Part shown: positions 14,797 to 62,642 of the stretch, piece after piece
Position numbering within the stretch: position 1 is the first letter of the stretch
How the letters are laid out: each line of letters starts with the position of its first letter
Assembly: GCA_963799845.1 (NCBI GenBank)
Contig: CAWCYI010000006.1
Span: 256,001-320,000, forward strand
Direction of reading: 5' to 3'
Source: an uncultured Nitrososphaerota archaeon
GTDB taxonomy: Archaea > Thermoproteota > Nitrososphaeria > Nitrososphaerales > CADDZS01
DNA: 64,000 nt
Translations under genes and position numbers: made by a program
Notes under the pieces: model-generated
Told to the model about the DNA's origin: nothing
What the model saw: the letters and a program-made list of their open reading frames with translations, nothing else
Database searches by the model: none

Positions 14797-17668
14797 ATGG
14801 GAGGGCAAAAGACACTTTGTTCTTTGGATCGTAGATATTTTGCTCATCATTACCCTGCACGTTGACGCTAACGCCTAAACGACTGCCGAGATATTTTTGA
14901 GCTGCCTCATAAGCCAATTTTTCATCTAGGTGCTTTGACTTTCTGTAGTTCTCAAGAAAATCCTCGCCAAGCTCATTGATCGTCTTAGACAGCCTGTTCA
15001 GGGTGTTTGCAACCAACTTTTTGTCTATACCCGGATGAGTCGAAAAGAACTTCCTTAGAGTTTCGCTTGTTTTCTCGCTAGTCTTTCTTCCCTCAAGCAG
15101 TTGGTCGAATAGACCGTAAGCCCAATCGGGTGAGCAGTAGATGTAGAGAGACCGGGGCTTTAATGTCATTAGTTTCAAAATGTTGTTTGAATCCTCGATC
15201 AATCTCTCAAGTAAGGATTCGGATAACTCAGATTCTGGATGCATTCGAACCTGCTCTACGTGTGGAAAACTAGACTCACACACCATTTTTTCTCGTCCCA
15301 GCTCCTGATAGATTTCCTCTACTGTATAGGGAATAAATGGAGCAAGAAGCTTATCCAGCAATCGATCGCGTATTCAATGACTTTTGCGTTTCGGTTTTCG
15401 CTACGGGAATTATAGTAACGAAGGTCATTCCAGTAAGAGTAAAACACTTCCTGAAATCCCGATTTTGTCTTCATTAGATCTAAGTTGGCGGATATACTTC
15501 CTATGTGCTTCTGGATTCGATTTTCGAGCCACAGATCAATCGACTCCATACTGTCGGTCTTTGATGCGGCTGATTCCGACATCGATCGGATAAAGCTTGG
15601 AAGAGCATTAATCTTTCCCTGAACATCCCTTGCATTTTTCTCTCGCCAGTCCATATCATCGAGACCCTCAGCGCCTTCCATCAGAGCAGATCGGAGCGCA
15701 TCTGCACCGTAAATTTCTAGGGCATTTGAGAGCGTAATGACATTTCCCTTGCTTTTGCTCATTTTCTCCCCTTCCACCATCATCATTCCGTTGGCGGAAA
15801 TTCCAGTCGGCCAAAGAGAACGCGGAAAGAAAGCTACGTGCTGAAACACGAAAAACATGAGGTGATTTGGAATTCAGCTCCTTTGCAGAGTTTCTCAAAT
15901 TTACCGGATACCAATAGAGAAACTCGTTTCTCATCTCTTGAATTAATTGAGCCGCGAGGCGAACCTTCCCGGACAACATTCTTGCGTCTCCATCTCCAAG
16001 AAATACGTAATTGAAAAAATCATCCGTTAGAGATTCTGGCTCAATACTGTTGGAGACAAGAAGCGGCCTGATAGTATAATACGCCATGTAAATCGTAGAA
16101 TCACTTAGCGTTTCAACTATCCAGCCGGGAGACCACGGAAGAGGAGTCCCTAGCCCAACCCTTCTCGCACATGGCCAATCTTTGATCCAGTCGATTACGT
16201 CATGGAACCATTGCCTCGTGCTCTCAGGGTACATCTGTGCACTATCTACGCATTCATGAGCTAGCTTTTTCCATTCAGGATCGGAATACTTCAGGAACCA
16301 TTGATCCTCTAGGATTTTAACACGGCATACTGTAAGGCACCTGCAAACGACTTTTTCAGGAAGATCATACATGGAATCAGCGAGACCCTTTTCCTTAAAA
16401 TCCTGAATAATCAAAGGCTTGGCTTCTGCCACTTTTCGTCCTTTGTATTTCCCAGTGTTTTCCATGAGAATTCCCTGATGGAATTCTCGTTTGTAAAGCA
16501 CCGCGGTAGCGTCATGAACCTTTTGATCTAGTTGATCTTTAACTTGCATTTCATCGACGATCTCTTGTGCCGGAAATTCTCCCATTCCCTTTACCGAGAT
16601 CAGCGAAACTGGTGAGACCTTCTGAACAGTGCTGGAATCCAGATGATATTTTCTTTGCTCATCAAAATTTGATTTCAAATCTTTCAAAGCGATATAGTCC
16701 ATCGGTGCATGCGCCGGAACGCTGTATACTACACCCGTTCCATTGCTGGGTTCGACAAATTTCGCCGGAAAAATGGGAAGCGTCTTTTCACTGTAGAGCG
16801 GATGGATAACATTCTTCCCGATTAATTTGCTTCCTAGAAAACTTCTCTGAATTACAATTGCCCTGAGCTGATCTTTGAGCTTGTCAGCAGCTTCAGCACT
16901 CACGATCCAGCTGCTGCCGCCATCAATTGAAATCTCAGAATATTCCGAATCGGGATTTATCCAGAGATTAGTGACCCCAAAGATTGTCTCAGGTCTGAAA
17001 GTGGCAGCCGGCAGAAAAGTATGGGCTCCTTCAAGTTTAAACAGAACAAGTGTATATTCCTCCCATTGCACTCCCTGTCCTTCTAATCTATCATGATCAC
17101 CCGTTGGACTTTGATCTCTAGGACACCATACAACAGGATGTGTACCCTGAGTAACAAAACCCATCTGCCGCAGCTTGTTATATTGCCATAGGACGAATTT
17201 GTTGAAGGTCGGTTCAAGATCAGTTGTGTGAAACTCTCTTCGCCAATCTATAGAAAGTGCGAGTCTCTGTAAGGCAGTCCTGCCAGAGTCCGTATAGTAC
17301 TGGGCCATGAATTTTGGATCGTAAAACTTTGGCAGATCTTCCTTCGGCACCTTGTCAATTTCGACAAACTCGGTGATCATTGCTCTGTCACCTTTGGACA
17401 GTCTCTCCGCAGCGGCTACTATTGGTTGTCCTGTCCAGTGCCAAGCCCATGGAAATAACACGTTGTAACCTTGCATTCGCTTGTACCGAGCAAAAACATC
17501 TACCCTGGTTGCAGTGAATCCGTGCCCTAAATGGAGAGGTCCGTTCATGTAGGGGAAAGGAAACGTGACCATCTTCTTTTCTCTAGAAAGATTGCGCTCG
17601 GGTTCGAAGACTCTATTTTCTTGCCACCTAGAAATCCATTTGTCTTCAATAGCACGGTCCATGTCCAA
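14771..17668 (-). CDS. leuS: Leucine--tRNA ligase (apparent frameshifts at ~15875 and ~15352)
   Basis: PYMNGxLHLGH (HIGH), KMSKS, C-terminal ALPFKPALY; three ORF-track pieces join into 965 aa. Confidence 0.95.
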
Positions 17669-17698: not shown

Positions 17699-20467
17699 TT
17701 AGGATTGGCCTTCGATTTGATATAACAAAATCGCTTGAAAGTCGGGCAATACTTCGGGTTTCTTGGCAGCTCCGCCTTGAGCGAATCTTGCATCTCCTCC
17801 CCCGGAACCGCCTAGAGCCTTTGCAATCTCGCGCGCTAGAGATCCCGCTTTCACTCCTTTCTTCTGGACGTCCTCCCCGCAGAAAACGATTAACCTGACT
17901 CCAGAATTTTCTTCAAATAGGGAGAGATAAATCAAAGATGGACTGGACTTGGACAATCGGTCGCCCACTATGGTGTGATATTCAGAATCGAGCCCCTCTT
18001 CAAAGGCGGAGAGATAGTAGCCAAGACCGTTGGAAAGTTTTATGCTAAGTTGAGGTATTTCGTTGATCATGAGATCAGCCAGCTTCTTGGCTAGCTGTTT
18101 AGAAGTCCTTCTTGCAATTTCTTCGTTCTTTTGCACTCTCGAAATAGAAGCAGTTAATTTTTCGACCGGTGTTTCGAGTTTTGACGAAGCCACAGCCAAT
18201 ATTGATTCTTGGTTTTCAACAAAATTTACAGCCGCCTCGCCTGCAACATACTCCAAACGCTCGACACCGTCCTGAACTCGTTCCGATTTTACGATCTTGA
18301 TCAAACCAACGTCTCCGGTTCTGGTACAATGAGTTCCACCGCAGGCTTCAATGTCCCAGCCCTCAATGTTTACAACCCTGAGTTCGCTTACCGGCGCGGC
18401 TCCTCCCTGGTATAGACGAAAACCGTATTCTTTTTCAGCCACCGATCGAGGCATCCACTTTATCACAACTGGGAGGTTACGCCTGACCACCTCATTTGCC
18501 ATTCTTTCGATTTCAAGTGCTTGGTCTCTAGACAAATGTGCAAAATGAGTGATATCCAATCTCGCCATGTTTTCATCTTTGTAAGCTGAATGTTGCCAAA
18601 CCCACGGACCCAAGATTTTCCTTGCGGATCCGTTGACTATGTGAGTGGCAGTGTGGTGCCGCATTATAAGGGAGCGACGTCTTGAATCAACTTTACCCTC
18701 CACCCGATCTCCAACGGAAATTCGACCTGAAAGTTCGGGAACATGGTGTAGAACGACGCTCTTGATTTTGAAAACGTCATCAACAAAAAGATCATTTATT
18801 GTTCCATGATCAGGCTCTTGACCACCTGCCCTCGCGTAGAAAGCAGTCGAATCAAGAACGACATAATCGTTTGAAACAATCTCAAGAACTTTGGCGCTGA
18901 AATCAAATTGATCCCTGTTTCGGTAGAAGATCAGGTCTGTCGGAGAGCTCGTCGTTAGCTCAAATGCTTGCGCCTTTTCCCGTTCTATTGATTCAATTTC
19001 TGATTCCTTCGGATCATCCATGTGCCGGGAAGTTATCTTGCTGTAAAAATCTGGAGGTATAGTAATCTTGAGGCCGCTTGCAGTAAGGAATTCAGGCGTT
19101 ATTCCTTCGCTATCATAAAGTTGAACGAGCTCCTCAGATCCGAGTTTCGAGTTTTTCTTTCGCAGATTTTCGACTACTTTCGAAGATCTCTCTTTCGTGA
19201 TTGAATATTTTTTCTTCTCAACTTCAAGGATTGTTCTGACATCATCCTCGTGTTCCGTCAACTCGGGATATATTGGTTTGAGAAATTCGGCATGCCAACG
19301 AGCCAAATCATCAATTTCGACATCCAGATCAAGTTCGTTTATGAAATCTAGAGCTCTTCTAAGAATAACCCGAAGATTATAGCCGCCACCCACATTTCCT
19401 GGAAGCATACCGTCGGAAATTGCGAACAGGAGAGTCCTAGCATGGTCGACGATTGAATAGATACCCTGAATTTGCCGTATTTTAGACCGGAAAAGTGGTT
19501 CGGGCATCTTGAGTTGCCTTGCAAGATCTGAATAATCTTCAACGACTCCTTTGAATTGATCTATATCGAGAGAGCCAGCGAGCCGGAAGTACTCATCTAG
19601 AGAATGATCAACTTCCATACTGAGTCCATTCTCAGTCCTTAATTTGTCAAGCACCGTTCGAAAAACGGATTCATAACAATTGAATGTTCCTTGCGACAGC
19701 CAGACAAGTCGGTCAAATCCCAACCCCATGTCAATAATTTTCTCGTCGTATTCTTTGAAATTCTCAGGAGTTCCTTCGTAGGCAGTAAAAACCGCGTTAC
19801 CCAATTCAGCACCCCTTACAAAGTATTCGAGACTGTATCCGAACGCGCCAGGGCCGAGCCAGACGTCCTCCTTGAATACTATTTCCTCTTTCTTTATTCC
19901 GAATTCTGAATTGAGTAATTCAAAATCAAGATCTATGCATTTATCCTTCCAGTAACCCTTTGAATTCGCCACGGCTTGCTGGCCAACCATGCAAAATGAA
20001 GTCAGGTGTCTTCCTGTAATGCCGACATTGGCAATATCAGAAAATCGTAGACACATTTGTGGGACGACCAGAGGGTTAGCTGGAAAATCGAATACAACTT
20101 TACCCGATTCGATTCTTTGGAAATCTACAATAGAAGCAATTGTAAAATAAAGGTCAGGCCTCCACCTGCAAACCACAGGGTATCTCGGGATTGATTCATG
20201 TCCATTTTTCTTGAAGAATCTTTCAATCGTCTTCCAACCTGTAACATAATCAAAGGCTTTTGAAGTGGCGGGATTTCCCAAGAACTCGTACGGCTGGCAG
20301 GTTGGGTCACCACAAAGGACTCTATTCTGGTCGAGCGTCCAGAAGAATAAACCACATTTAGGGCATTTCTTTCTCAAGAACCCAAGTTCATCAAATAGCC
20401 GCACGCGATAATACCTGTCGGGATCGGCTGAGAATCGTTCTCGAAGTAGCTCCTTCCCTAATGGCAT
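17699..20467 (-). CDS. alaS: Alanine--tRNA ligase (archaeal type)
   Basis: WRPDLYFTIASI, GRHLTSF, HHTATH...CGGTH editing motifs, GGSGGG; start at ATG 20467. Confidence 0.96.
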   Translation of the reverse strand: MPLGKELLRERFSADPDRYYRVRLFDELGFLRKKCPKCGLFFWTLDQNRVLCGDPTCQPYEFLGNPATSKAFDYVTGWKTIERFFKKNGHESIPRYPVVCRWRPDLYFTIASIVDFQRIESGKVVFDFPANPLVVPQMCLRFSDIANVGITGRHLTSFCMVGQQAVANSKGYWKDKCIDLDFELLNSEFGIKKEEIVFKEDVWLGPGAFGYSLEYFVRGAELGNAVFTAYEGTPENFKEYDEKIIDMGLGFDRLVWLSQGTFNCYESVFRTVLDKLRTENGLSMEVDHSLDEYFRLAGSLDIDQFKGVVEDYSDLARQLKMPEPLFRSKIRQIQGIYSIVDHARTLLFAISDGMLPGNVGGGYNLRVILRRALDFINELDLDVEIDDLARWHAEFLKPIYPELTEHEDDVRTILEVEKKKYSITKERSSKVVENLRKKNSKLGSEELVQLYDSEGITPEFLTASGLKITIPPDFYSKITSRHMDDPKESEIESIEREKAQAFELTTSSPTDLIFYRNRDQFDFSAKVLEIVSNDYVVLDSTAFYARAGGQEPDHGTINDLFVDDVFKIKSVVLHHVPELSGRISVGDRVEGKVDSRRRSLIMRHHTATHIVNGSARKILGPWVWQHSAYKDENMARLDITHFAHLSRDQALEIERMANEVVRRNLPVVIKWMPRSVAEKEYGFRLYQGGAAPVSELRVVNIEGWDIEACGGTHCTRTGDVGLIKIVKSERVQDGVERLEYVAGEAAVNFVENQESILAVASSKLETPVEKLTASISRVQKNEEIARRTSKQLAKKLADLMINEIPQLSIKLSNGLGYYLSAFEEGLDSEYHTIVGDRLSKSSPSLIYLSLFEENSGVRLIVFCGEDVQKKGVKAGSLAREIAKALGGSGGGDARFAQGGAAKKPEVLPDFQAILLYQIEGQS

Positions 20468-20556
20468 TGACAGGATACCTTCGGTTATTAACTGAAAAGT
20501 TTGCACTAGTTTATTTATTGATTAAGTTCAAACTGCTTGAAAAAATTCGAGAAGGA

Positions 20557-22258
20557 CTAACCCTCGCTTTCATATTCCTCTTTCAGATCGTGTATTTGAT
20601 CCAACAGAGAATTCATTACGCTTTGCAGCCTACGCTCGTTGCTTTGCTGTAGTCTTGAGAATGTCTCTTCTTTCATCTTTCTTGAAAGAAGCTGATCATA
20701 GTTGTTCAGAATGTCTTTGACAACACGGTCAAATTCTCGATCGCTTGCAAGAACTTCGTTTAGATCGCTTTGCACAGTCACGCTTGCATCCGCTAGCTGA
20801 GCTCGCAATGTGCCAATCCTCGAATTCGTCTTTATCCTGAAATCATCAATACGAGATCTAGCGACAATGACCTCGTTTCGAGACACTGAAGTGCCCCTGG
20901 CTTTTAATTCCGAGAGTATTTCGTTCGTGTTCGAGACTTTGTCTTCAAAAGCCTTTGTCAACGAATCAAAAGTTGTTGAGGAATCTTCCTTCGACTCTTG
21001 TTTTGGTCGAAACACCACAGCTCCAACGAATACAGCAATAAACAACAACCCGGCTATTGGCAAAGCAGACCCGAAAGCTGAGGCAATTCCCACTCTATAA
21101 GTCAGAATCGAGGACCCGTGGATCTCGGTAGTATTGAACCCTTTGAGGGAAAGCTGATTTCCAGAAACTACAATCCCTGGGACGGTCGATGAGGTGATCT
21201 GATATTGGTCGAAAACAGCTTGGATAGGAGTCGTTGTGGGAATGGAAACAATATAGTTACCATTAGAATAGTTCCAGTACTGTTGCCCTAAAGGATATTG
21301 GTAAACGAGCGATGCAGAGCTGTCAGGTTGAATTGCTTGTCCCGTTGAATTTAGATCAAGAACATCGCCGCTAATCGGAATTGAAGCGAGATTGCTCAAT
21401 GGAGGTTCACTTGTTGGAACTGCAGTCAGACTTGAATCATTTGTAAGTGGCGAGTACGAAAGAGAGTAGATTGTGTTCTCTCCGAGATTACGTAAATCCA
21501 GAGTATCGGTAACTATTACTTGCCCGTTAGCGGCAACAGAAAGTCTGTCTGTTTGCGGAGGTAAAATCCAATGCTCCGGAAGAGTCTGGGGTTGAGAAGA
21601 TCTCCACCTGACCGCTTCTGACTGTATTCGAAACGTTAGGACCGCTGTAATCCCAAGTCTCAAGGGTCGCATTAGTCCCGACAGTGTGCGAAAACCCAGC
21701 CTCTTGCATTGGTGTAGGGTCAACAATGTGAGTCGTCAAATAGGGAAGTACTATCGAAGTGACGATCTTATCCAGTGGTATGCTAACTCCCGGAGAAAAA
21801 AGAATTGGAGCTGTGTAATTACCATCGGCGATTGACTGAAAAGTATTGAGCACGTAAAACCCTAAGCTAATTGATGAATTCGATCCTGGTTGCAGGCCAG
21901 GAGAAACTGAAAGTGCCATTGAGACGGTATTGTTATTCGAAATACTCGTAGATTCGGTCACCTGAACCGTGTTATTGTCAGTAATGCCGTGGAGACTCAT
22001 TGCCACGATGTGGCCAGCAAACGCCGACGGGAATACCAAGGTTACTGATGAAAGGCCCGATGTGCTGTTCGTTGTTTGATAAAGCGTCTCATTTACTTCG
22101 AATTGACCAAAAGTGTTGAATGTGACGATGTTCTTGACCCAATAACCACTCGTTGCCGTCGAAGCGGCATGAGAAGTAGAACTATTGGCAAGCATACCAA
22201 AAGCTAGGAGTGAAATAATGAAAATGAGCGCCATCAAAAACGACGCCTTGAAGCGCAA
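20557..22258 (-). CDS. Signal-peptide, single-TM glycoprotein resembling ribophorin I/OST1 (frameshift at 21544; 566 aa joined)
   Basis: Signal peptide, beta-rich extracellular region with many N-x-S/T sequons, RQLSVAANGQVIVTDTLDLRNLG, one TM helix, helical cytoplasmic tail. Confidence 0.6.
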
Positions 22259-22449: not shown

Positions 22450-23835
22450 TTGGTAGTACACAAATTCCTTCCCAATTCGGAAGATGAAATCACTCGTTAC
22501 ATGCTTGACAGGCTTGGTTTGAATTCTTTGGACGAACTTTTCAGTGATATTCCAGAAAATGTACGTCTTAACAGACCTCTAAAGATCCCGGATTCGATGA
22601 GTGAAATCGAATTGGAAAAGTTAGTCTCCAAAAAATTATCGCGAAACAATGCTGCGCCGGAGTTTCTAAACTTCCTTGGAGGAGGAAACTGGGTTCATCA
22701 CGTCCCATCAATAATTGACGAGATCTTGTCAAGAGGCGAGTTTTACACGGCGTATACTCCCTACCAGCCAGAAATAAGTCAGGGAATGCTTCAGGCACTT
22801 TTCGAATATCAGAGCGAAATCTGTGAGCCTACAGGGATGGAAGTTGCAAATAGCTCGATGTACGATTGGGGAAGCGCTTTAGGTGAGGCCGGAAGGATGG
22901 CACAAAGGGTCACCGGTAGAATGAAAATTCTAGCCGCTTCGAGTTCTTCTCCAGAGAGACTTGGTGTTCTAGAAACATACTGCGTACCCGCAGGAATACG
23001 GGTGTCAAGAATCAACTTTCAAAACTCCGGAACTATTGACATGAATTTGCTCAACAGACAATTGGATGACTCCATTGGTGCAGTCTATCTAGAAGTTCCG
23101 AATTTTCTTGGCGTTATTGAGGACTCTTTGAATGAAATTGCAGAGAGGTGTCATAAAAGGGGAGCTTTGTTGATTGCGGGGGTCAATCCTATCACACTTG
23201 GGGTATTGACTCCTCCTGGCGCTTATGGAGCAGATATAGTAGTTGGAGACGGACAACCTCTTGGTCTTTATCCGAATTTTGGGGGGCCGTTGATGGGAAT
23301 TTTTGCCACGAGAGATGATTCAACTTTGCTCAGGCAAATGCCTGGGAGGCTGATCGGCATGACTCGTTCGATAAACGGGGCAAGAAGAGGCTATACAATG
23401 GTGTTGCAAACTCGGGAACAGCACATTAGGCGAGAACATGCTACATCCAATATTTGCACTAATGAGGCGTTATTCGCTCTGGCTGTAAACATCTATCTTT
23501 CCGCGATGGGTCCAAATGGGATTCGAGAAATTGGTGAACGTATCTTTGGCAATTCACATTATGCCAGGAAGAGGTTTCTCGAGGAAGGTTTATCCGTACC
23601 CCATTTTAGTGGCAATTTCTTCGGCGAACTAAGCGTCAAGACGATTTCCGATTCGATTGAGCTGTCAAAAGAGCTAGCCAAACACAATATTCTGGGAGGA
23701 CTGCCACTAGGAAGATTCTATGATAATTTGCAAAACGTTTCCTTATTTTCATTCAGCGAACTGCACGGAGTGGATGACATCGAACAACTGCTTTCTACGA
23801 TCAAATCGATCGAGCAAGAAAAAGTAGGTGCTTAG
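22450..23835 (+). CDS. gcvPA: Glycine dehydrogenase (decarboxylating) subunit 1
   Basis: EFYTAYTPYQPEISQG and QTREQHIRRExATSNICTN. Confidence 0.96.
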   Translation: MVVHKFLPNSEDEITRYMLDRLGLNSLDELFSDIPENVRLNRPLKIPDSMSEIELEKLVSKKLSRNNAAPEFLNFLGGGNWVHHVPSIIDEILSRGEFYTAYTPYQPEISQGMLQALFEYQSEICEPTGMEVANSSMYDWGSALGEAGRMAQRVTGRMKILAASSSSPERLGVLETYCVPAGIRVSRINFQNSGTIDMNLLNRQLDDSIGAVYLEVPNFLGVIEDSLNEIAERCHKRGALLIAGVNPITLGVLTPPGAYGADIVVGDGQPLGLYPNFGGPLMGIFATRDDSTLLRQMPGRLIGMTRSINGARRGYTMVLQTREQHIRREHATSNICTNEALFALAVNIYLSAMGPNGIREIGERIFGNSHYARKRFLEEGLSVPHFSGNFFGELSVKTISDSIELSKELAKHNILGGLPLGRFYDNLQNVSLFSFSELHGVDDIEQLLSTIKSIEQEKVGA

Positions 23836-25366
23836 GAAAGGAATGGTTTTCCATCAAGCTGTCTGGGACGAGCCTCTTCTTAGTGAGCTTTCCAGAAGTG
23901 GTCGTCGAGGATATTCTCTTCCGCCTGTTGAGAAAATTGTGAGATCTCAAATTGAAAATCTGAATGAGCAGATTCCAGAAAAGATGATCCGAAACGATCT
24001 CCCGAGGTTGCCGGAAATCTCCGAACCTGAGATAATTCGTCATTTTGTAAGACTCTCTCAGATGAATTTTGCAATCGATCTAGGAATGTACCCCCTGGGC
24101 AGTTGTACAATGAAATACAATCCCAAAGTTTCCCAAAGAATCGCGCGTAATCCGAAAATGGCTATGCTTCATCCGTATCAGCATGAATCGACCGTTCAAG
24201 GAACCCTAGAGATATTCTATGAACTACAGCAAATGCTTTCGGAAATTTCCGGAATGGATTATTTTTCATTGGCACCTGCGGCGGGAGCGCAGGGCGAATA
24301 TGTAGGCGCGTTAATTATTCGCAAGTATCTCAAAGATAACAATCTTGAAGGGAAAGACGAAATGCTCGTTCCGGATTCCGCGCATGGTACCAATCCAGCA
24401 AGTGCGGCTATGGCGGGATTCAAGGTCGTGAAAATACCTTCGTCGGACGAAGGAATAGTGACTCTTGAAGCTGTAAAGAAAGTAATTTCAGACAAGACCG
24501 CAGGAATGATGTTGACCGTTCCGAGCACTCTGGGAATTTTTGAAAGAGAGATAGTTGAAGTCACCAAAATCGTGCATGAGAAAAAAGGTCTGATGTATTA
24601 CGATGGCGCCAACATGAACGCTCTACTGGGACGTGCTCGACCCGGGGATATGGGTTTCGACATAGTGCACATAAATGTCCACAAGACTTTTGCGACTCCT
24701 CATGGCGGAGGCGGTCCTGGGGCGGGGCCCGTCGGGGTAAGGTCGCACCTTCGCGAGTACCTCCCAGTACCATTAATTTCGAAAATTGGCAATGAATACA
24801 CATTGGATTACTCGGTTGCTCGAACAATCGGACATATCAAGTCATTTTACGGCAATTCTGCTGTACTTTTGAGAGCTTATTGCTACATTCTGAGCCTTGG
24901 TAGGGACGGTCTGAAGTCTGTATCAGAGCAAGCAGTGTTGGCTTCAAATTACCTACTATCGTTGCTTAACAAGGATGCCTTCAGTACTCCTTACTCGCCG
25001 AAAACTCCGCGAAAGCATGAGTTTGTGGTTAGTGCATCTCCCTTGAAAAAGAGAACAGGGATCTCAGCAGGTGATGTGGCAAAAGCGATCCTTGACTCGG
25101 GAATGCACTCCCCGACCACGTACTTTCCTCTTATTGTGGCGGAAGCTCTGATGGTAGAACCGACAGAGACAGAGTCTGTTGAAAACCTTGAGGCTTACGG
25201 GCGTGTCCTAAATGAGATCGCGACTTCGGCGTCGAGTGACAAAGAGTCTGTTATCGATTCACCAAAGAATACTTCAATCGGAAGACTGGACGAATACAGG
25301 GCTTCACATCCTACCTCTATGATTTTGAACTGGAAGAAGATTCCGAAATCGCAAAAAGGGCAGTAA
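23828..25366 (+). CDS. gcvPB: Glycine dehydrogenase (decarboxylating) subunit 2
   Basis: YPLGSCTMKYNP, SAHGTNPASA and PLP-lysine motif HKTFxTPHGGGGPG; start may be ATG 23843. Confidence 0.96.
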   Translation: MLRKGMVFHQAVWDEPLLSELSRSGRRGYSLPPVEKIVRSQIENLNEQIPEKMIRNDLPRLPEISEPEIIRHFVRLSQMNFAIDLGMYPLGSCTMKYNPKVSQRIARNPKMAMLHPYQHESTVQGTLEIFYELQQMLSEISGMDYFSLAPAAGAQGEYVGALIIRKYLKDNNLEGKDEMLVPDSAHGTNPASAAMAGFKVVKIPSSDEGIVTLEAVKKVISDKTAGMMLTVPSTLGIFEREIVEVTKIVHEKKGLMYYDGANMNALLGRARPGDMGFDIVHINVHKTFATPHGGGGPGAGPVGVRSHLREYLPVPLISKIGNEYTLDYSVARTIGHIKSFYGNSAVLLRAYCYILSLGRDGLKSVSEQAVLASNYLLSLLNKDAFSTPYSPKTPRKHEFVVSASPLKKRTGISAGDVAKAILDSGMHSPTTYFPLIVAEALMVEPTETESVENLEAYGRVLNEIATSASSDKESVIDSPKNTSIGRLDEYRASHPTSMILNWKKIPKSQKGQ

Positions 25367-34573: not shown

Positions 34574-35706
34574 CTAGAACTTGAAAAATCCTTTCTTCTT
34601 CTCGTCTTCTACCTGTTTGAATTGCTTAAGAAGTCTCTCTTTGCTTTTCCGTGAGTTTCATCGGAACTATAACGTTAACAGTTACTAGTTCGTTTCCCCT
34701 GTTGGAACTGCCCATAATGGGAACTCCCTTCCCTTTCAGTTTCAGGGTCGTTCCGTTCTGAGTTCCGGCTGGAATTGAAATCTCCGCGCCGGAACCATCT
34801 ATCGTCGGAACCTGTATAGTAGACCCGAGAGCCGCGCTCGCCATGTCAAGCGAAACGGAACAGTGAAGATCTCCTTCCTCGCGAGTGAAGACCTTGTGCG
34901 GCAAGACGTGGCAGACCACGTAGAGGTCTCCGGCGGACGTCCCACTTTCGCCTGCATCACCCTCGCCCCTCAACCGAAGCGATGATTCGTTTTCGATCCC
35001 CTGAGGGATTTTCACGGTTATTTTCCGTGTCTTTTGAACAGTCCCGTTTCCCTTGCAATCTCTGCATGGGTTATCGAGGACTTCGCCCTTTCCTCTGCAG
35101 ACTCTACAGGTCTCGATCCGAACAAATTGTGCAAATCCAGACGAGCTGAATTCTCTGGACCTGGCCTCTGCCACCACACTCGGTGCAGACTCGAGGCGTG
35201 CTACCGGGCCTCGCGCCGCTCCCTTTGCAAACTGAACATCTTTCCGTACGGGGAATTTCAATTTCTGTGTTGAGACCGGTTGCTACCTGTTCCAACGTAA
35301 AATCCAGCTCATATCTGAGATCCGCCCCACGTCGGGCCCCGCGGCCCGACCCCGTCATGTTCCCGAAGAACATGTCAAAAATACTTCCACCAAATCCGCC
35401 GAATCCTCCGAATCCGAGATCTCGTAGTATCTCATCAAAGTTGGCTGTACGGAAAATGTCCTCGGTGGAATATTTACCCTGAATTCCTTCATGACCGAAC
35501 CGATCGTACTGCGCCCTCTTCGCGTCATCCGATAGTACTGCGTATGCTTCTGAAATTTCCTTGAACCGATCTTCCGCACCAGCGGCCTTGTTACGATCGG
35601 GATGGTACTGCATTGCGAGTTTGCGGTACGAGCTCTTGAGCTGATCTTTACTCGCGTCTTTTGGGACGCCAAGTACCTCGTAATAGTCTCTTTTTTCCGA
35701 CGACAA
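34574..35706 (-). CDS. dnaJ: Chaperone DnaJ (apparent frameshifts at 35148 and 34634)
   Basis: HPD J-domain, G/F region, four CxxCxGxG repeats; corrected end RELLKQFKQVEDEKKKGFFKF*. Confidence 0.95.
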
Positions 35707-38729: not shown

Positions 38730-39963
38730 CTAATCGTACTGGCTTCTAGCATCAGACTTTGACAAATCCTTCTCAATATCCGCATCATTTTCGTGGGATG
38801 AGCCAATGCTCTCCCTTCTAATCGGCTTTATTTTCACTTCGAGAATATCAAAGGGCTTGTCCCGCTCGATGTCGTAAGAGCCGAATAACTGGGAAAGGTT
38901 CGGTTCAACCGTGCCGTCCTGACCCAGTACGAGTTTCTTTAGGGGTATCCCGCCGTCACAATGAACCTCCAGTTCGATTGTTTCCCCTTCATCCAGAACT
39001 CTACCACGGATTTTTTGAATTTCTCTTTGTACAGTTCTGAACTTTCTGGATAGCCTGACGCTGACATGCACATTTGAGAATCTTTCCCTTACATCTTCCA
39101 GCTCTGAATTTCCAATTCTCAATCCTTCTGGTTTTCTTCTCAGGTATACCCTGGCACTTATCTCGAATTGAGGAACATAAGTAACCCTGCGGTCTAGGAT
39201 CTCTAGGTTCTTGATTTGAATTTCTTTTGACCTGAACGCAGTGGCCCTGGGCCTTCGGCCGGCACGTGCCATCAGCTGCCAATCCAGATCTCCTCTTCGG
39301 CCTCGTCACCTCGACGTAAAATGGTCTCCCGGATCCGACCACAAGGCTGTTTTCGTCTTCACTGCCCAGCCAGACAAAATTGCAGCTTTCGGCGTCAAAT
39401 TTCTTGACAAGAAAATCGGTAATTTTCGCTTGAATACTGAAGACGGATTTGCCTCTGTAATTGCACTGCGCGCAACCTAGTCCACTGCATACATTGCACA
39501 CCGAGCTCCTCTGCTGCAAACCGCGAACAAGCTTTGTGTAATTTCCACTGAGCCATATCGATCTTGGATTGACAGTAATCTGCCTATCAACCATTGAAGC
39601 CAAAATAGTTACGTCCGGTCGCGAATAGTTGACGCTCTTTCCCGTGTGCTGCTTGACACGCTTGCTCAGTACCTTGGTGATCTGGGATTTGATACCATCT
39701 CGACCCTTGATCTTGAGCCGCGATCTCAACTCGTCTTCTCTATCCAAAATCGACTGCGGAACTGATGCACCCACCAAGAATGATTCGAATTCGAACTCTT
39801 TCAGTTTGATGAGGATTTCGTCGGCAAGAGACTTCAGACCTGTCATCATCCCTTCGCAAACATAACAGGAACCCGGATCTACCGCTGCCTCGTATCTCAG
39901 TCCGTCCCTCTGCTGACAGAATTTACAAAGAACAATTCCTTGTTGGAGGACTGCGGATTTCAT
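38730..39963 (-). CDS. pus10: tRNA pseudouridine synthase Pus10, divergent (frameshift at 39273)
   Basis: CxxC/CxxC, THUMP-like region, YxKxxRGxxQ, GSEDxxSLVxGSGRPFxVE, DGG..KKL and FDILEV. Confidence 0.85.
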
Positions 39964-52194: not shown

Positions 52195-53076
52195 TTGAAC
52201 ATCCTGTTTGGCGTGTCAAGTCAAGAATTACTTCACCCGGTGGGAATTCACGTTTCTATTTCGGGCAAGCTCGACTTTTCCGTAGATAGGGCAATTGTAC
52301 TGGGCTGCTCTCGAACATTTCAGATCTTTACCTGTAGTCCTCGTAGGTGGGATGCATCTCCCTTGGACGGGAATGAAGTCTCAGCGTATCGCAAGAAAAT
52401 CTCGGAATCCAAATTCAAGGTGCATGCTCATATGCCCTATCTCCCAAATCTGTCATCCCCTGAGGATGAATTTTATTCAAAATCGGTTCGAGTCCTGATC
52501 AGAGAAATTAGAAGATGCGGAGAACTGGGTGTTGAGAACTTGGTTCTTCACTTTGGCAGCCACTTGAAAACTTCGATTGAAGCAGGGGCAGAAAGGATAG
52601 TCGCTGCATGCAAGAATTCCATCGATGAAACAGAAGGCGTAGAGGTTCGTCTCCTGCTGGAGAATTCTGCCGATCCCAACAGCGTCGGTTCAAATTTCGA
52701 TACTATAGGCAGAGTGCTGGAAGGAATACGGAACAATAAGAGAATGGGTGTATGTCTCGACACGTGTCACGCTTTTGCGTCTGGTTACGATCTTTCTGCG
52801 CCGTCCGGTGTCAAAAAGTCGCTAGAGCTATTCGATTCTTCTATCGGGCTCGCAAATCTTTTCCTCATCCACCTGAACGATTCCAAAGGAAAGATCGGTT
52901 CAGGTCTAGATCGCCACGAAAGTATCGGCAAGGGAAACATTGGTGTCGCAGGTATGACGGCAATTCTGAGATCGGAAAAACTAGATCATTTGCCCTTTGT
53001 TTTGGAAACTCCCCGAGACTACGAGGGCGAGGACAAGGAGAATATCGAAACGACCAAACGGTTGATGCGCAACTAG
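52195..53076 (+). CDS. nfo: Endonuclease IV (AP endonuclease family 2)
   Basis: GIHVS, HMPYLPNL, LENSA, CLDTCHAFASGYD, HLNDSK, DRHE and LETP. Confidence 0.95.
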   Translation: MNILFGVSSQELLHPVGIHVSISGKLDFSVDRAIVLGCSRTFQIFTCSPRRWDASPLDGNEVSAYRKKISESKFKVHAHMPYLPNLSSPEDEFYSKSVRVLIREIRRCGELGVENLVLHFGSHLKTSIEAGAERIVAACKNSIDETEGVEVRLLLENSADPNSVGSNFDTIGRVLEGIRNNKRMGVCLDTCHAFASGYDLSAPSGVKKSLELFDSSIGLANLFLIHLNDSKGKIGSGLDRHESIGKGNIGVAGMTAILRSEKLDHLPFVLETPRDYEGEDKENIETTKRLMRN

Positions 53077-53828
53077 ACTTGAGCCCGGATGTAGTCCTGC
53101 CCGTCTCGAAAGGCGATCAATTTCGCAGCTCTCTGGTCCCGAGTTCCAGTCATGTAGGATTTGCTCCTTTTCCTAGACAAAGATGAAGTGCCGCTTTCGT
53201 TCACAAGTTGCAACCGAATTTCATCGTGATACCTCGAATCGAGAATTTGGGCGATTTTCTTTGCCAAGTGAATATTTCCGGAACCAATCTTGACTATTTT
53301 CTGAATATCAGGAGCATTATCTATAAGGGCAGAGACTCGTGCAATTGTTTCGTCGAGAGAGTGGACAACGCTGCTCTCGACCTCCCGATGATTTATGAAA
53401 GCGGCGACGCCAGTTCTCTTCCCTGGGTCTACTCCTATGATGAACCAGTCATGGGGCTTTGCAGGGTAGAGAAAAGATAGAATTTTCGCTCTTGCAATTC
53501 CCACATCGTCTCCAAGGTCCTCGACGCAAATTATGGAGGGGCCGAAGAATTGAAGACGCTCTCGCCTCGTTGTGATTATTACCTTGATATTTCTCTCAAG
53601 ATAAGGCACTGCGTTGTCTGATCCATCATTGCGAATCTGCGGATGTCTTGGCAAGACATCTGCGAAAGGAAACCCGAGCCTCTTGAGAAGGGAGGCAATT
53701 AGAAAATATGCCTTGCCATTAGAAGTTGACACTCCAACTTCGGGGCCGGAATCAAAGATTTCTCCTATTCTTCCCACCCAACAGGCGATAGAAAATTTGG
53801 CGAGATTCAAACTTTTAAGAGTTGACAT
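53073..53828 (-). CDS. YqgF/RuvX-like RNase H-fold protein with N-terminal extension; start uncertain
   Basis: IGVDPGKRTGVA, VNESGTS and RDQRAAKLIA. Confidence 0.7.
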   Translation of the reverse strand: MSTLKSLNLAKFSIACWVGRIGEIFDSGPEVGVSTSNGKAYFLIASLLKRLGFPFADVLPRHPQIRNDGSDNAVPYLERNIKVIITTRRERLQFFGPSIICVEDLGDDVGIARAKILSFLYPAKPHDWFIIGVDPGKRTGVAAFINHREVESSVVHSLDETIARVSALIDNAPDIQKIVKIGSGNIHLAKKIAQILDSRYHDEIRLQLVNESGTSSLSRKRSKSYMTGTRDQRAAKLIAFRDGQDYIRAQV

Positions 53829-54586: not shown

Positions 54587-55009
54587 CTACTTTACCGAGA
54601 GAATGTAGTAGCCTACGGTCATTGAGACAGCAATCAGTACGATTCCACCCACAAAGAACATTTCGGCCGAACGCGCCCTTATTGTCTGTCGACCACTAAG
54701 ATACAAGGCGTAAGCTCCTAGAGACCCAACAATATAGCTGAACATTATGATTATGGTTTCGGTGACATTTTGTGCGTTGGGATTCGCGACTATCGGATTC
54801 AGATTTATTCCCGCTTGACCTGCGTTGCCGATGGCGTTAATGACCCCGGCGACCAGCAGATACAGGGCAAGTAAATACAACCACTCTATTCCTCGGGTTC
54901 TCAAAGAGGTTGTAGAGCCGGGGTTGGAAAGCCTTCGGCCAATACTAGTTTGTGTCACTCGCGAAGTTAACTTTGATGTAGCGGTCTGTACTCTTTTCTT
55001 AATCCCCAT
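54587..55009 (-). CDS. 3-TM membrane protein resembling OSTC/DC2 (OST3/OST6 C-terminal family)
   Basis: LYLLVAGVINAI...QNVTETIIIMFSYIVGSLGAYAL...FVGGIVLIAVS...YILSVK. Confidence 0.6.
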   Translation of the reverse strand: MGIKKRVQTATSKLTSRVTQTSIGRRLSNPGSTTSLRTRGIEWLYLLALYLLVAGVINAIGNAGQAGINLNPIVANPNAQNVTETIIIMFSYIVGSLGAYALYLSGRQTIRARSAEMFFVGGIVLIAVSMTVGYYILSVK

Positions 55010-58610: not shown

Positions 58611-59750
58611 TTGTCAAAAAGATCCCATCTGTACCAGTATCACAGAGATAACGGCAAAATGACTGAATTTTCGGGTTTCGAAATGCCCGTTTGGTACAAA
58701 GGCATCGTCGAAGAACACCTAGCGGTCCGAAACGCTGCCGGACTGTTTGACGTTTCTCACATGGGTCGAGTTTGGATAACGGGGCCGGATGCGACTAAAT
58801 ACTTGAGCCATTTGCTTCCGACTAATCCCAGTCTGGTAAGGGACGGTCGCGCGTTCTATTCAATGATTTGCAATCGAAATGGAGGAATAATCGACGACCT
58901 AATTACAAACAAATTCTCAGAAGAGCGATATCTGATGGTGGTCAATGCAGGAAACCGAGACAAGGATTTTTTGTGGCTTCGAAATAACAGTTCTGAATTT
59001 CAAGTATTTCTTGAGGATTTCTCAAATCAATCAGCGCTCATGACGATTCAAGGGCCTCTTGCGAGTGAGATTCTCCAAAAGATGGTTGACACTGATCTTT
59101 CTACTGTTAGGCGTTTCGCCCTCAGAGAATGTCTGGTGTCAAATGAGAAATGCCTCGTCTCAAGAACCGGGTACACTGGCGAAGATGGATTCGAAATTAC
59201 AGTGTTCGACACACCACTCGAGAACCCCGAACGAGCTTTGAAGATTTGGAAAGAGATTCTACAAATTGGCAATAATTCGGGAGTTCTACCATGTGGGCTG
59301 GGAGCGAGGGATTCACTTAGATTGGAAGCTGGAATGTGTCTTTACGGTCAGGATATCGATGAGACGACCACTCCCGTCGAAGCAGCGCTTGATAGTATTG
59401 TCAATCAGGATGAAAGAAACTTCATAGGAAAAGAGAAAATCATTCAGCAACTCAAACAAGGTACCGAAAGAAAGAGAGTTGCGTTCTCTATGATCGAATC
59501 GGGAATTCCGAGGCATGGATTTGACCTAGCCTTCTCGGGACAAAAAGTTGGAAATGTCACTTCAGGGACGTTCTCTCCGATCTTGAAAAAAGGAATTGGA
59601 ATGGGCTACGTTAGAACACCTCTTGCTAACTACGGGCAACGGATCGCTGTCCAAGTAAGGGAATCAGCGAAGATGTCTGAAGTCGTACCTACTCCATTTT
59701 ACGACGCTACGCGATTCGGCTACAAGAGAAAAATCAGGGCGAGTATCTAG
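58611..59750 (+). CDS. gcvT: Glycine cleavage system aminomethyltransferase T
   Basis: FDVSHMG, RTGYTGEDGFE, GLGARDSLRLEAG and VTSGTFSP. Confidence 0.96.
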   Translation: MSKRSHLYQYHRDNGKMTEFSGFEMPVWYKGIVEEHLAVRNAAGLFDVSHMGRVWITGPDATKYLSHLLPTNPSLVRDGRAFYSMICNRNGGIIDDLITNKFSEERYLMVVNAGNRDKDFLWLRNNSSEFQVFLEDFSNQSALMTIQGPLASEILQKMVDTDLSTVRRFALRECLVSNEKCLVSRTGYTGEDGFEITVFDTPLENPERALKIWKEILQIGNNSGVLPCGLGARDSLRLEAGMCLYGQDIDETTTPVEAALDSIVNQDERNFIGKEKIIQQLKQGTERKRVAFSMIESGIPRHGFDLAFSGQKVGNVTSGTFSPILKKGIGMGYVRTPLANYGQRIAVQVRESAKMSEVVPTPFYDATRFGYKRKIRASI

Positions 59751-59802
59751 AATCATTTTTATCTGATCAGATTTTCTCATTACTTCTGATCAGCGAATTC
59801 AG

Positions 59803-60213
59803 ATGGCAGAATCGTACAATGTACCAGCCGACTATTTCTATACGAGAGATCATGAATGGATAAAGCCGAACAGTGACTCGTATCTAATTGGAATCACCGA
59901 TTACGCAGCAAAGATGTTGAACGATATCGTTTACGTGAACCTTCCGAAAGAGGGAGTCTCTTTTAAACAAAAAGATGTTTTTGGTCAAGTCGAATCCGTA
60001 AAAACTGTTTCTGACTTGTATATGCCAGTATCAGGGGAAATTATCAAAACAAATAACCAGTTGACGCAGACTCCAGAGCTTGTCGCAAACTCCCCGTATG
60101 TTGATGGATGGATGTTGGTAATTAGCTCGGAGAAATTTTCCGAAGAATCTCGGGATCTTCTGGATGCAAAAGCGTACAATGATTTCATTTCGAGTCTCAA
60201 AGATGCTCAATGA
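59803..60213 (+). CDS. gcvH: Glycine cleavage system H protein
   Basis: HEW, GITDYA, lipoyl-lysine VESVKTVSD and SPYxxGW. Confidence 0.96.
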   Translation: MAESYNVPADYFYTRDHEWIKPNSDSYLIGITDYAAKMLNDIVYVNLPKEGVSFKQKDVFGQVESVKTVSDLYMPVSGEIIKTNNQLTQTPELVANSPYVDGWMLVISSEKFSEESRDLLDAKAYNDFISSLKDAQ

Positions 60214-60251: not shown

Positions 60252-62642
60252 GTGTTTTTGCAAATGAGCTTCCGGGATCAGCTCGCCAAAATTAGAGGCA
60301 TATTTTACCGCCCCTCAATGACGCGGCGCAGTGCTACTATCTTTCTCGCGATGTCGCTTATTTTCATAATCGCACTAATCATGAGGCTTTATCCAGCACA
60401 ATATGGTTGGTTTTTGAATGAGTTTGACCCTTACTTTGACTATTATGCTTCTTATCACGTCGTCGTTCTAGCGCAACAGCACGGCTTGATATACGCCCTA
60501 TTCAACAATCCGGCGAATTGCCCCCCTGGTCTTGTCAGTGGTGCAGCAGCCGCCTGCCACTCTCAACAGGGATATTACTTTTGGCACGACATTCAGACTT
60601 GGTATCCGTATGGGAGAAATGTCGCTGCGACAAGCCAGGTAGGACTACAGCTCACAGGTGCGATGTCCTATCTTTTCGTCAACTCGGTTCTTGGAATTTC
60701 CGTTAGTTATTACGATTTCCTCGTCTTCTTCCCAGTCATCGTGGGTTCGCTCACAATCATTCCTCTATACTTCTTGGCGAAGAAAATTACGAACAGTGCG
60801 GGAGGAATTTTTGCAGCGCTGATTTTTGCGGTTTCACCCCCGATACTTGAACGAGGTAACTTAGGATGGTTCAAGTCTGAACCACTGTCGCTTTTTGCTT
60901 CAGTGATAGGAGCTTACTTCTTTCTTTCAATGTATAATTCCAAGAATTCGCTCAGGGGAGTACTCTTGAGAGGGCTGCTTGCGGGAATGTTCTTCGGATA
61001 TTCAATGATCGATTGGGGAGGTGGAGATGAGTTCGTTCTGATTTTCGGTCTGATATTCTTGATTGCTCCATTTGTGAAAAGCATAGACCTACAGAAGACA
61101 GTCCAAGGCGGATCCCTCCTAGTCGCTGCTTTACTTCTCATATCGGCAACTACTCCAAGGCCCGGCCCAGGAATTATTACAGATCTCATTGGACTCCCGC
61201 TTATCGGCAGCTGGGTTTTTGCGTTTGTCGCGTACTTTGTTAAACGATACGGCGATCCCGCTTCGTACAACCGCAATCTGATCAAGATTCTTCTGATCTT
61301 CGTATTTGGTGGACTCCTTGCTATTTCGTTCGGCGCCATCGGGGGGATATCTGGAAGATATCTCACTGTAATTTATTCCCAGTTCAGAACTAGCGATCCT
61401 CTGGTCCAGTCGGTTGCGGAACAGGCAGTGCCAACGGGCAGCCAGTTCTTTTCCGATTACGCAGCCGTTATACTTCTTTCAGGGTTTGGGGCGTATATTG
61501 CATTTAGAAGAAGGTCAATCGAAGGAATCTTCGCGCTAGTTCTTGCGATCACAGGGGTATACATCGCTTCTTCATTTTCAAGGCTGATGGTGTACTCGAC
61601 GCTGGCGCTTGGGATACTCGGTGCGATTGGCTTGATTGAACTTTCAGAATCAATCCTCAGGCCCAATGTTTCAAGCGTAAGTCGAAAGAAAAGCAAGATC
61701 TATGAATCAAGAAGCGAGGTCAAGGTCATATTCTCAGTATTGATGGTTGCTTTGATTGCTATTCCGATTTTCATCCCCGCAAACGCAACCAATGGATATT
61801 CATTATCCCACTCTGGATGGATTGCTGCTGCCAACGTTCCTGTAAGTGTAGCAAACGGCGGAACTGCATTCAGTACTTCCAGCACGGATTGGCTCCAAGC
61901 CTTTAGCTGGATGCGAACGCTTGGGTCGAGCACAACGATTGCATCCTGGTGGGATTACGGATATTGGACTGCGGTAATGGGAAATATTACCTCCCTGGCC
62001 GATAACGCAACAATAAACGAGACTCAGATTTCATTGATAGGACAGGCTCTAGTTGCCCCACCACAGCAGTCTTTGCAGGTATTGAAGGAACTTCATTCGC
62101 CTCAGTATATTCTAATATTCATCGCGGGCTATAGATTCACCCCCAGTACGTCCTCGGGACAAGCTAGCCAGCTTTATTACATGCTGACGGTTCCAACTCC
62201 TTATCCGCAACCTGCAGGTGGTGATGAATCTAAGAAACAGTGGTTTATTAGAATCGGGAATGAGACATGCGGATGTCTTGAAGAAACTCTTGGCTCACAT
62301 GCCCTGATGGAAAACGACGACTTTACTCCTACTCCATATTTCTGGGCAAATTCTACGCTTGGGAAACTTATTCCGTTCCAGTCACAACAATTGTACTACA
62401 ATCCAGTTTCTTCCCAAACCGCGCAAGGTTACAACCAGACTATTTCTACCACAACTGGCGCATCTGGGATATCTAACGGGTATACGGAGATCTACACTTA
62501 CGGAGTGAACTATCCGACAGGCGATACCTCTGCTCCCTTCCAGCTGGCGTTCGAATCTTCCAGCCTTCCGGGGACTGCCGCCGGTCTCTACACGGCAGTA
62601 CTTGTTTACAAGATCAATTACAACTATACCTTCCCTGCCTAA
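60252..62642 (+). CDS. aglB: Oligosaccharyltransferase catalytic subunit AglB/STT3
   Basis: EFDPYF, WYPYGR, SVAEQ, WWDYGY, ADNAT and DK motif DESKKQWFIRIG; about 13 TM helices. Confidence 0.95.
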   Translation: MFLQMSFRDQLAKIRGIFYRPSMTRRSATIFLAMSLIFIIALIMRLYPAQYGWFLNEFDPYFDYYASYHVVVLAQQHGLIYALFNNPANCPPGLVSGAAAACHSQQGYYFWHDIQTWYPYGRNVAATSQVGLQLTGAMSYLFVNSVLGISVSYYDFLVFFPVIVGSLTIIPLYFLAKKITNSAGGIFAALIFAVSPPILERGNLGWFKSEPLSLFASVIGAYFFLSMYNSKNSLRGVLLRGLLAGMFFGYSMIDWGGGDEFVLIFGLIFLIAPFVKSIDLQKTVQGGSLLVAALLLISATTPRPGPGIITDLIGLPLIGSWVFAFVAYFVKRYGDPASYNRNLIKILLIFVFGGLLAISFGAIGGISGRYLTVIYSQFRTSDPLVQSVAEQAVPTGSQFFSDYAAVILLSGFGAYIAFRRRSIEGIFALVLAITGVYIASSFSRLMVYSTLALGILGAIGLIELSESILRPNVSSVSRKKSKIYESRSEVKVIFSVLMVALIAIPIFIPANATNGYSLSHSGWIAAANVPVSVANGGTAFSTSSTDWLQAFSWMRTLGSSTTIASWWDYGYWTAVMGNITSLADNATINETQISLIGQALVAPPQQSLQVLKELHSPQYILIFIAGYRFTPSTSSGQASQLYYMLTVPTPYPQPAGGDESKKQWFIRIGNETCGCLEETLGSHALMENDDFTPTPYFWANSTLGKLIPFQSQQLYYNPVSSQTAQGYNQTISTTTGASGISNGYTEIYTYGVNYPTGDTSAPFQLAFESSSLPGTAAGLYTAVLVYKINYNYTFPA

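Follow-up and report, generated by a model that had tools for sequence, protein, structure and literature searches.

A highly divergent Ost1/ribophorin I-like protein in a Nitrososphaerales archaeon and its possible partnership with AglB

Results

A split gene at 20557–22258 is most likely one gene broken by an assembly error

The window analysed in this study is a 64,000-nt stretch of DNA from an uncultured Nitrososphaerota archaeon, positions 256,001–320,000 of the forward strand of contig CAWCYI010000006.1 (assembly GCA_963799845.1; 9 contigs, genome 86.68% complete). On its minus strand, at 20557–22258, lies a gene for a protein resembling Ost1/ribophorin I (human RPN1), a subunit of oligosaccharyltransferase (OST). 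The gene and the parts of its product were assigned as follows, TM denoting transmembrane.

20557–22258, minus strand: Ost1/ribophorin I-like gene, stop codon at 20559–20557 included, present as two overlapping reading frames through one extra base
21544, within this minus-strand gene: the extra base that causes the frameshift, T on the plus strand and A in the gene sense
22166–22258, minus strand: TTG start and signal-peptide-like N-terminus (about residues 1–31), from hydrophobicity, with the cleavage site placed by eye
21593–22141, minus strand: outer beta-sandwich domain 1 (about residues 40–222, homologue-model numbering)
21091–21571, minus strand: membrane-proximal beta-sandwich domain 2 (about residues 230–389), spanning the frameshift
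21010–21090, minus strand: single TM helix (about residues 390–416), from the homologue model and hydrophobicity
20560–21000, minus strand: cytoplasmic tail of four helices (about residues 420–566), the best-conserved module of the family

The two minus-strand open reading frames (ORFs), 21527–22258 (243 aa, TTG start) and 20557–21726 (389 aa), overlap in different frames. The first frame terminates in ...FTSANRQTFCCR followed by a stop, and the second reads ...QTDRLSVAANGQVIVTDTLDLRNLG... at this place. When one base was removed after CAG, the window sequence read RQLSV. The junction is RQLSV or RQLSL in the two closest relatives and R-x-(L/I/V/F)-(S/T)-(V/I/L/M) in the other aligned relatives. 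The gene was then followed through 41 genomes of the order, comprising the window's own and 40 relatives, with 20 families sampled; the unpublished genome G001 enters only the tallies and one of the 11 cases of gene proximity to aglB given below, and no conclusion depends on it. Matches to the second ORF were found in 26 of these genomes, and they begin at its residue 56–65, each within a single open frame of 493–630 aa. The family profile found the two gene halves abutting, with profile positions 4–227 at C6:277545–278243 and 228–556 at C6:276569–277543.

Public Logan contigs covering the junction were found in two soil-metagenome runs of one study, X1 (depth 5.8, 0.96 of sampled words present) and X2 (depth 2.9). 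Both lack exactly base 21544 and otherwise equal the window over 1231 and 192 bases, with 0 other letters. The extra base falls within a short repeat, CAGACAGAC, as would fit a consensus error, and a second disruption was not found in the 1.7 kb of the gene. Since the X1 and X2 contigs lack the base, the relatives have single open frames and the profile halves abut, the two ORFs are most likely one gene and the break at 21544 an assembly error. The corrected protein has 238 + 328 = 566 aa, and the gene is very probably intact in vivo.

Two side observations concern this region and its reading frames. A 185-base contig from a peat metatranscriptome (run X4, a different study) covers 21861–22045 with one differing letter, C>A at 21996. 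It hints at a near-identical organism in peat and possibly at transcription, and is far too little to claim either. Elsewhere in the window, four more pairs of same-strand ORFs overlap in different frames, at 15319–17668, 34626–35706, 38730–39963 and 52195–53186. As the break at 21544 looks like an assembly error, these may be further single-base indel errors.

The corrected protein has the architecture of a type I membrane protein

The structure was modelled with AlphaFold2 on an equally long (566 aa), 73%-identical homologue (L002:790–2487) in place of the window's own broken sequence, using a 63-row alignment (A4). The model has a mean predicted local distance difference test score (pLDDT) of 91.1 and a predicted TM-score (pTM) of 0.67. 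It consists of a beta-sandwich at 40–222, a second beta-sandwich at 230–389, a TM helix at 392–415 and four long helices at 426–565. The second sandwich is the counterpart of Pfam Ribophorin_I positions of about 250–437, the part matched by Bathyarchaeia-type relatives. In a hydrophobicity scan of both halves, run without a dedicated signal-peptide predictor, Kyte-Doolittle 19-residue windows exceeded 1.8 at residues 1–10. A second hydrophobic segment was found at about residues 389–419, and there were no others beyond the N-terminal stretch. A signal-like N-terminus and one TM helix straight after the second sandwich correspond to a type I topology.

The ectodomain carries 12 N-X-S/T sequons in 358 residues, compared with 6.6 +/- 2.2 in shuffled sequences; a count of 12 was reached by 27 of the 2000 shuffles. 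No sequon lies in the tail. The mean pairwise identity within the close family was highest in the tail (0.57), followed by the TM helix (0.49), domain 2 (0.42) and domain 1 (0.36). Across the order (alignment A6), the highest values are those of the TM helix (0.34) and the tail (0.31). A preliminary description of this DNA had proposed a one-base repair at 21544 giving a 566-aa protein with a signal peptide, a sequon-rich beta ectodomain, one TM helix and a helical tail. The repair was exact, as the same base is missing from the X1 and X2 contigs, and the architecture is borne out by hydrophobicity and the homologue model. The ectodomain is indeed enriched in sequons over shuffled sequences, and the enrichment is modest.

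Profile and fold comparisons lead to ribophorin I/Ost1

Four alignments were used for the comparison: A1, a profile of 10 close homologues; A5, 9 Ribophorin_I-positive proteins; A6, the order-wide family; and A10, the tail only, with 19 sequences. Searching A1 against 1.84 billion representatives gave 166 matches at E<=1e-3. From the 150 listed, we scanned 48 long (550–610 aa), weak hits from rank 75 down, and 34 of them matched Ribophorin_I (PF04597), with a best E of 2e-24. Among ten A1 hits scanned singly, with E values of 3e-12 to 6e-9 against the family profile, nine were above the 25-bit Ribophorin_I cut-off. PF04597 was also present in 28 of 32 relatives of the best Ribophorin_I-positive hit, for which the sole taxon name was Candidatus Bathyarchaeia archaeon.

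The window family and these proteins were then aligned profile to profile. As computed by hhalign, A1 and A5 match with a probability of 99.84 (E 1.8e-30) over 514 columns, from the first sandwich through the last helix. Aligned by itself, the tail (A10) matches the full length of the A5 tail, 139 columns, with a probability of 97.05 (E 7.8e-11). Against the PDB, the A5 profile found human RPN1 (6s7o_E, E 6.2e-20) over nearly its whole length, the Asgard chain 8whn_A, a 'Ribophorin 1 superfamily protein' from the crystallised cytoplasmic domain of a Lokiarchaeal OST1 (E 7.9e-19), and yeast Ost1 (6c26_1, E 2.9e-7). By way of the Bathyarchaeia-type tail, which matches both 8whn_A and the RPN1 tail, the window tail is a helical cytoplasmic domain homologous to the ribosome-binding domain.

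The predicted fold gave the same answer. When the homologue model was compared with 350,542 PDB chains by Foldseek, the top 8 chains were all RPN1 or Ost1 (E 5e-22 to 3e-12), and rank 9 had an E of 2.2e-5. VIA-align scored the same 8 chains at Z 21.2–18.3, with the next fold at Z 10.6. The VIA alignments to human RPN1 continue into the tail (model 37–553 against chain 30–594; model end 553–558). When hhalign and the A5 profile were combined, the window segment FTSANRQLSV..G..V.D.....N.G shared columns with the Bathyarchaeia-type consensus and human RPN1, as did the window LLSRKMKEETF with YRrGrlSkeaY and human RPN1.

Two local resemblances to RPN1 had been pointed out earlier from the sequence, and both fall on the same alignment columns. 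The identity suggested at that time was ribophorin I/Ost1-like, to be checked by profile and by Foldseek. Profile and fold routes both end at RPN1/Ost1, and not at surface-layer (S-layer) or DUF2207 proteins, with RPN1/Ost1 taking all of the top 8 Foldseek places for the homologue model. On the profile side, the direct Ribophorin_I search is silent and the connection is made by hhalign through the Bathyarchaeia-type group. Because the transitive profile hits, hhalign and the fold matches agree, the corrected 566-aa protein is almost certainly a true, highly divergent homologue of Ost1/ribophorin I, as judged from its sequence relatives and the modelled structure.

Pfam and NCBIfam scans of the two gene halves gave nothing relevant. 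The best PDB hits of A1, A6 and A10, a biofilm surface protein and an arginine repressor, were taken as chance matches. The window protein lies below the 25-bit gathering cut-off of PF04597; its branch is beyond the reach of that model.

The gene is widespread in the order and its neighbourhood is conserved in the close family

A broad profile detected the gene in 27 of the 41 genomes and 11 of the 20 families. The relatives' proteins are annotated as 'hypothetical protein'. In the window, the gene stands between alaS (17699–20506, minus strand) and gcvPA/gcvPB (22450–25366, plus strand). In the close family, alaS is the neighbour in 9 of 11 loci, the remaining two being cut by contig ends, and neighbours differ outside it. 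A related-locus search with A1 returned 10 loci, all of the close family. The glycine-cleavage genes of the window are split: gcvPA/gcvPB lie beside the Ost1-like gene, and gcvT/gcvH (58611–60213, plus strand) lie directly upstream of aglB. This split between two OST-related loci is probably a coincidence.

AglB and a small membrane protein are candidate partners

Two further genes of the window were considered as possible parts of an OST. The preliminary description had suggested that their products may form an STT3-RPN1-DC2-like complex of eukaryotic style with the Ost1-like protein, which is still an inference.

60252–62642, plus strand: AglB, an oligosaccharyltransferase of the STT3 type, present once in the genome and presumed to be the catalytic partner
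54587–55009, minus strand: 140-aa membrane protein ('DC2-like'), of putative membership in OST3/OST6/DC2

AglB scored 52.7 bits against PF02516 (cut-off 24.5 bits), and its W566, W567, D568, Y569 and G570 are invariant in 17 sequences. The STT3-type AglB noted earlier at this place is real and single-copy, with its WWDYG motif. Just past WWDYG, AglB has DNATINET (residues 584–591), in which D584, N585, A586, T587, N589 and T591 do not vary among 17 relatives. An excerpt of PMC8993221 describes a double sequon common to eukaryotic Stt3 and to the AglB of Asgard archaea and of TACK archaea (Thaumarchaeota, Aigarchaeota, Crenarchaeota and Korarchaeota). DNATINET looks like the double sequon in that description. 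A complex prediction with full AglB (A8) and domain 2 with the TM helix (A9, residues 62–256 of ORF 20560–21726) gave no answer (score 0.00) and counts neither for nor against an interaction.

The 140-aa protein is conserved in 32 of the 41 genomes. Its model (mean pLDDT 70.7) has an N-terminal helical region at 2–28 and then three long helices, which we read as putative membrane helices. Compared with PF04756, it reached E 0.079 and 12.8 bits (cut-off 27) at profile positions 222–283, which are the last membrane helices. In the Foldseek comparison of the model, the top three places went to human OST-A entries (chain H or J, which we take to be DC2), with weak E values of 0.44–0.67. By VIA, the OST chains (Z 5.8–8.3) were tied with unrelated helical hairpins, and their identities were the highest, at 20–23%. 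A profile of the protein found nothing in the PDB. A family search gave 143 hits, and among the 120 listed there was no Pfam domain and the source names were all 'hypothetical protein'. Searching the window genome with OST3_OST6 gave 4 sub-threshold matches, and the control was matched in 12 of 14 genomes.

The position of this gene relative to aglB was also compared. In 11 genomes (G000, G001, G006, G007, G008, G010, G020, G021, G025, G030 and G039) of 5 families (f1, f9, f10, f14 and f19), the two genes share a contig and lie 1.7–9 kb apart. They are 42 kb apart in G024 and on different contigs in the other genomes. Such conserved closeness is a hint of a functional link to AglB, which the Ost1-like gene does not share.

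Discussion

In this study, we found a branch of proteins in the order that shares its four modules with known members of the Ost1/ribophorin I family. The nearest relatives found outside the order are the Bathyarchaeia Ribophorin_I-domain proteins (P0092 group), which have 554–604 aa and the same four modules. They differ from the window family in having only 16% identity in the hhalign alignment and basic tails, compared with acidic to neutral ones. Human RPN1, in OST-A and OST-B (6s7o_E, 8pn9_E, 8b6l_O and 6s7t_E), gave the closest structural match, with Foldseek E 5e-22 to 4.5e-15 and VIA Z 20.9–21.2. It is likewise type I, with two beta-sandwiches, one TM helix and C-terminal cytosolic helices, and the motif columns R..G...V.D.....N.G and, in the tail, K.K.(D/E)T(F/Y) coincide. 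Human RPN1 is unlike the window protein in that identity is 10–12%, that there is no direct Pfam or HMMER match to the window family, and that the archaeal host has no endoplasmic reticulum (ER) and the window tail is acidic. Yeast Ost1 (6ezn_A, 6c26_1, 7oci_A and 8agb_E) matches over both sandwiches and the TM helix (VIA Z 18.3–20.9, 356–363 residues, root-mean-square deviation 6.8–7.2). The match stops at about model residue 421; the solved yeast chains end soon past the TM helix, leaving the four-helix tail without a counterpart.

Another close parallel is Asgard OST1, such as that of 'Ca. Prometheoarchaeum syntrophicum' MK-D1 (cytoplasmic domain 8WHN; PMC11417166), an archaeal plasma-membrane form with a long helical tail. 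The window-family tail resembles the Bathyarchaeia-type tails (probability 97), which in turn match 8whn_A at 7.9e-19. Pfam Ribophorin_I recognises the Asgard and Bathyarchaeia proteins and misses the window family. Binding to ribosomes, eukaryotic ones, is shown in the excerpted text of PMC11417166 only for the MK-D1 domain.

On balance, and with moderate confidence, we favour the reading that the window encodes a divergent Ost1/ribophorin I orthologue, an intact 566-aa type I membrane glycoprotein that would serve as a non-catalytic partner of AglB. A number of observations weigh against it. Its intactness depends on low sequencing depth at 21544 (5.8 and 2.9), X1 is possibly the source sample itself, and a co-occurring strain could supply the base-free contigs. 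The gene could accordingly be a real pseudogene in this strain, the intact public contigs belonging to its neighbour, in keeping with the presence of the extra base in the window assembly and with shallow contigs from a metagenome that possibly holds several strains. We consider this improbable, as the two contigs match the window in every other letter along 1231 and 192 bases, no second disruption occurs across 1.7 kb, the frame is open in all relatives, and the position of the base within CAGACAGAC fits a consensus error. As for the homology, Ribophorin_I had no match at E<=1 to either half and none in the six-frame genome, matched none of 19 order-level homologues at E<=1, and matched none of the 41 genomes at E<=0.01, where the control also matched no genome. 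The HMMER profiles A1, A6 and A10 reached no RPN1, Ost1, 8WHN or other OST chain in the PDB. Identity to RPN1/Ost1 is just 8–12%, and the case is built on profile-profile comparison, transitive hits and the predicted fold of a homologue. A generic surface glycoprotein that carries two immunoglobulin-like sandwiches and a coiled-coil tail, is anchored by a TM segment and has converged on RPN1 would explain the missing direct matches and an identity of about 10%; folds such as beta-sandwiches and helical bundles are common, and unrelated chains reach Z of about 10. Convergence is nevertheless very improbable. It would have to account for the 514-column hhalign match, at a probability of 99.84, with proteins above the Ribophorin_I cut-off, for a tail that aligns independently and end to end, for four modules in the same order, and for eight top structural matches that are all RPN1/Ost1, which the next fold trails by 7 orders of magnitude in E and by roughly 8 units of Z.

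The partnership with AglB is more exposed. In 14 of the 41 genomes, most of which have AglB, the broad profile did not find the gene. Six of the 14 are 99% complete (G015, G019, G023, G026, G037 and G040), and five of those six (all except G019) have AglB. As the gene was not found there though AglB is present, AglB works in those organisms without the Ost1-like protein. Nor is there linkage to aglB, which lies 38 kb away here and 58–200 kb away in G007, G010 and G020, where the two genes share a contig. Ost5 bridges Ost1 to Stt3 in eukaryotes, as seen in yeast structures. A further difference from the human complexes is that Ost5, OST48, RPN2 and DAD1 were not found above threshold in the window genome, which is 86.68% complete, so that absence is not demonstrated. 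Ost5 stayed below the cut-off (best E 0.0118; the control matched in 9 unrelated genomes), OST48_N gave a best E of 0.299 within a frame carrying 5 stops, DAD gave a best E of 0.186, and Ribophorin_II had no match, its control matching nowhere. The protein may instead be a true Ost1 homologue that works without AglB, for example as a receptor or chaperone for secreted proteins that is associated with the translocon or the ribosome, with the association with STT3 arising later, towards eukaryotes. The missing synteny with aglB, the genomes that have AglB and no detected Ost1-like gene, and the lack of an Ost5 match above threshold would all suit such a protein, as would the fact that its most conserved part is the tail and not the part facing the catalytic site. 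On the other side, all characterised members of the family are OST subunits, the matched PDB entries are all OST complexes, and both ectodomain domains keep the RPN1/Ost1 fold (Z of about 20). The patchy distribution and the lack of linkage to aglB keep this alternative alive, and we regard it as possible, if rather unlikely. By analogy with the characterised family members, the chance that the Ost1-like protein works with AglB appears to us about even.

If the Ost1-like protein is a partner of AglB, its place would be in the cytoplasmic membrane, as a non-catalytic companion of the single AglB/STT3. The outer sandwich domains would lie beside the catalytic subunit, where the emerging polypeptide would be glycosylated. 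The strongly conserved tail would attach to a conserved partner in the cytoplasm, which, by analogy with RPN1 and Asgard OST1, would be the ribosome or the translocon, and such binding would couple glycosylation to secretion. The PDB entry 8b6l, which includes RPN1, is titled as the human ribosome-bound translocon. Docking of the window tail on the ribosome, which is drawn from this analogy, seems doubtful to us. The window tail is acidic, with a net charge of -6 and an isoelectric point (pI) of 4.95 (family mean net charge -0.9), compared with the basic Bathyarchaeia-type tails (mean net charge +6.6, pI 9.5). These values also weigh against the favoured reading, and an acidic tail does not favour RPN1-like binding to ribosomal RNA.

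Tail charge varies across the order in the A10 sequences, from -7 to +1 net in the window's family and up to +8 in several other families. The tail fold and the motifs EDKVS.TN, DREFDR and Y.Q persist across the order. The cytoplasmic partner may differ between lineages.

A bolder proposal is that Nitrososphaerales have a minimal three-part OST, in which AglB and the Ost1-like protein would be joined by the small three-helix protein as a DC2/Ost3-like adaptor, the Ost1 tail holding the complex at the Sec translocon. We consider this arrangement unlikely at present. If it were true, an OST-A-like core for co-translational glycosylation would predate the Asgard-eukaryote line and go back to a common ancestor with TACK archaea.

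Ost1/ribophorin I ranks among the 'eukaryotic signature' parts of secretion and glycosylation, and is mostly credited to Asgard archaea. A report from 2016 (Lombard, PMC4973528), in its excerpted text, found no convincing prokaryotic homologues of the accessory OST subunits. More recently, OST1 and OST3/6 were described in eukaryotes and in archaea of the TACK and Asgard groups, and the cytoplasmic domain of Lokiarchaeal MK-D1 OST1 was reported to bind eukaryotic ribosomes in pull-downs (Carilo et al. 2024, excerpts of PMC11417166). The background assumed in the preliminary description, that discussion of accessory subunits concerns Asgard and some TACK archaea, agrees with those excerpts. In the excerpted text of a 2025 glycoproteomics study of Nitrososphaerota (PMC12153357), aglB is the sole OST subunit named. 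Our literature search, which did not extend to supplementary tables, found no paper joining 'ribophorin' and 'Nitrososphaerota'. As OST1 in TACK archaea is already published according to the excerpts of PMC11417166, the gain here is modest.

What is new is a Nitrososphaerales branch of Ost1, found in 27 of 41 genomes, annotated as 'hypothetical protein' and unseen by the Pfam model. Surveys based on Pfam or BLAST undercount the accessory OST subunits of archaea. As the order contains cultivated organisms, the role of Ost1 in cells without an ER becomes testable. These results add to the signs that the 'eukaryotic' Ost1 also exists outside Asgard archaea.

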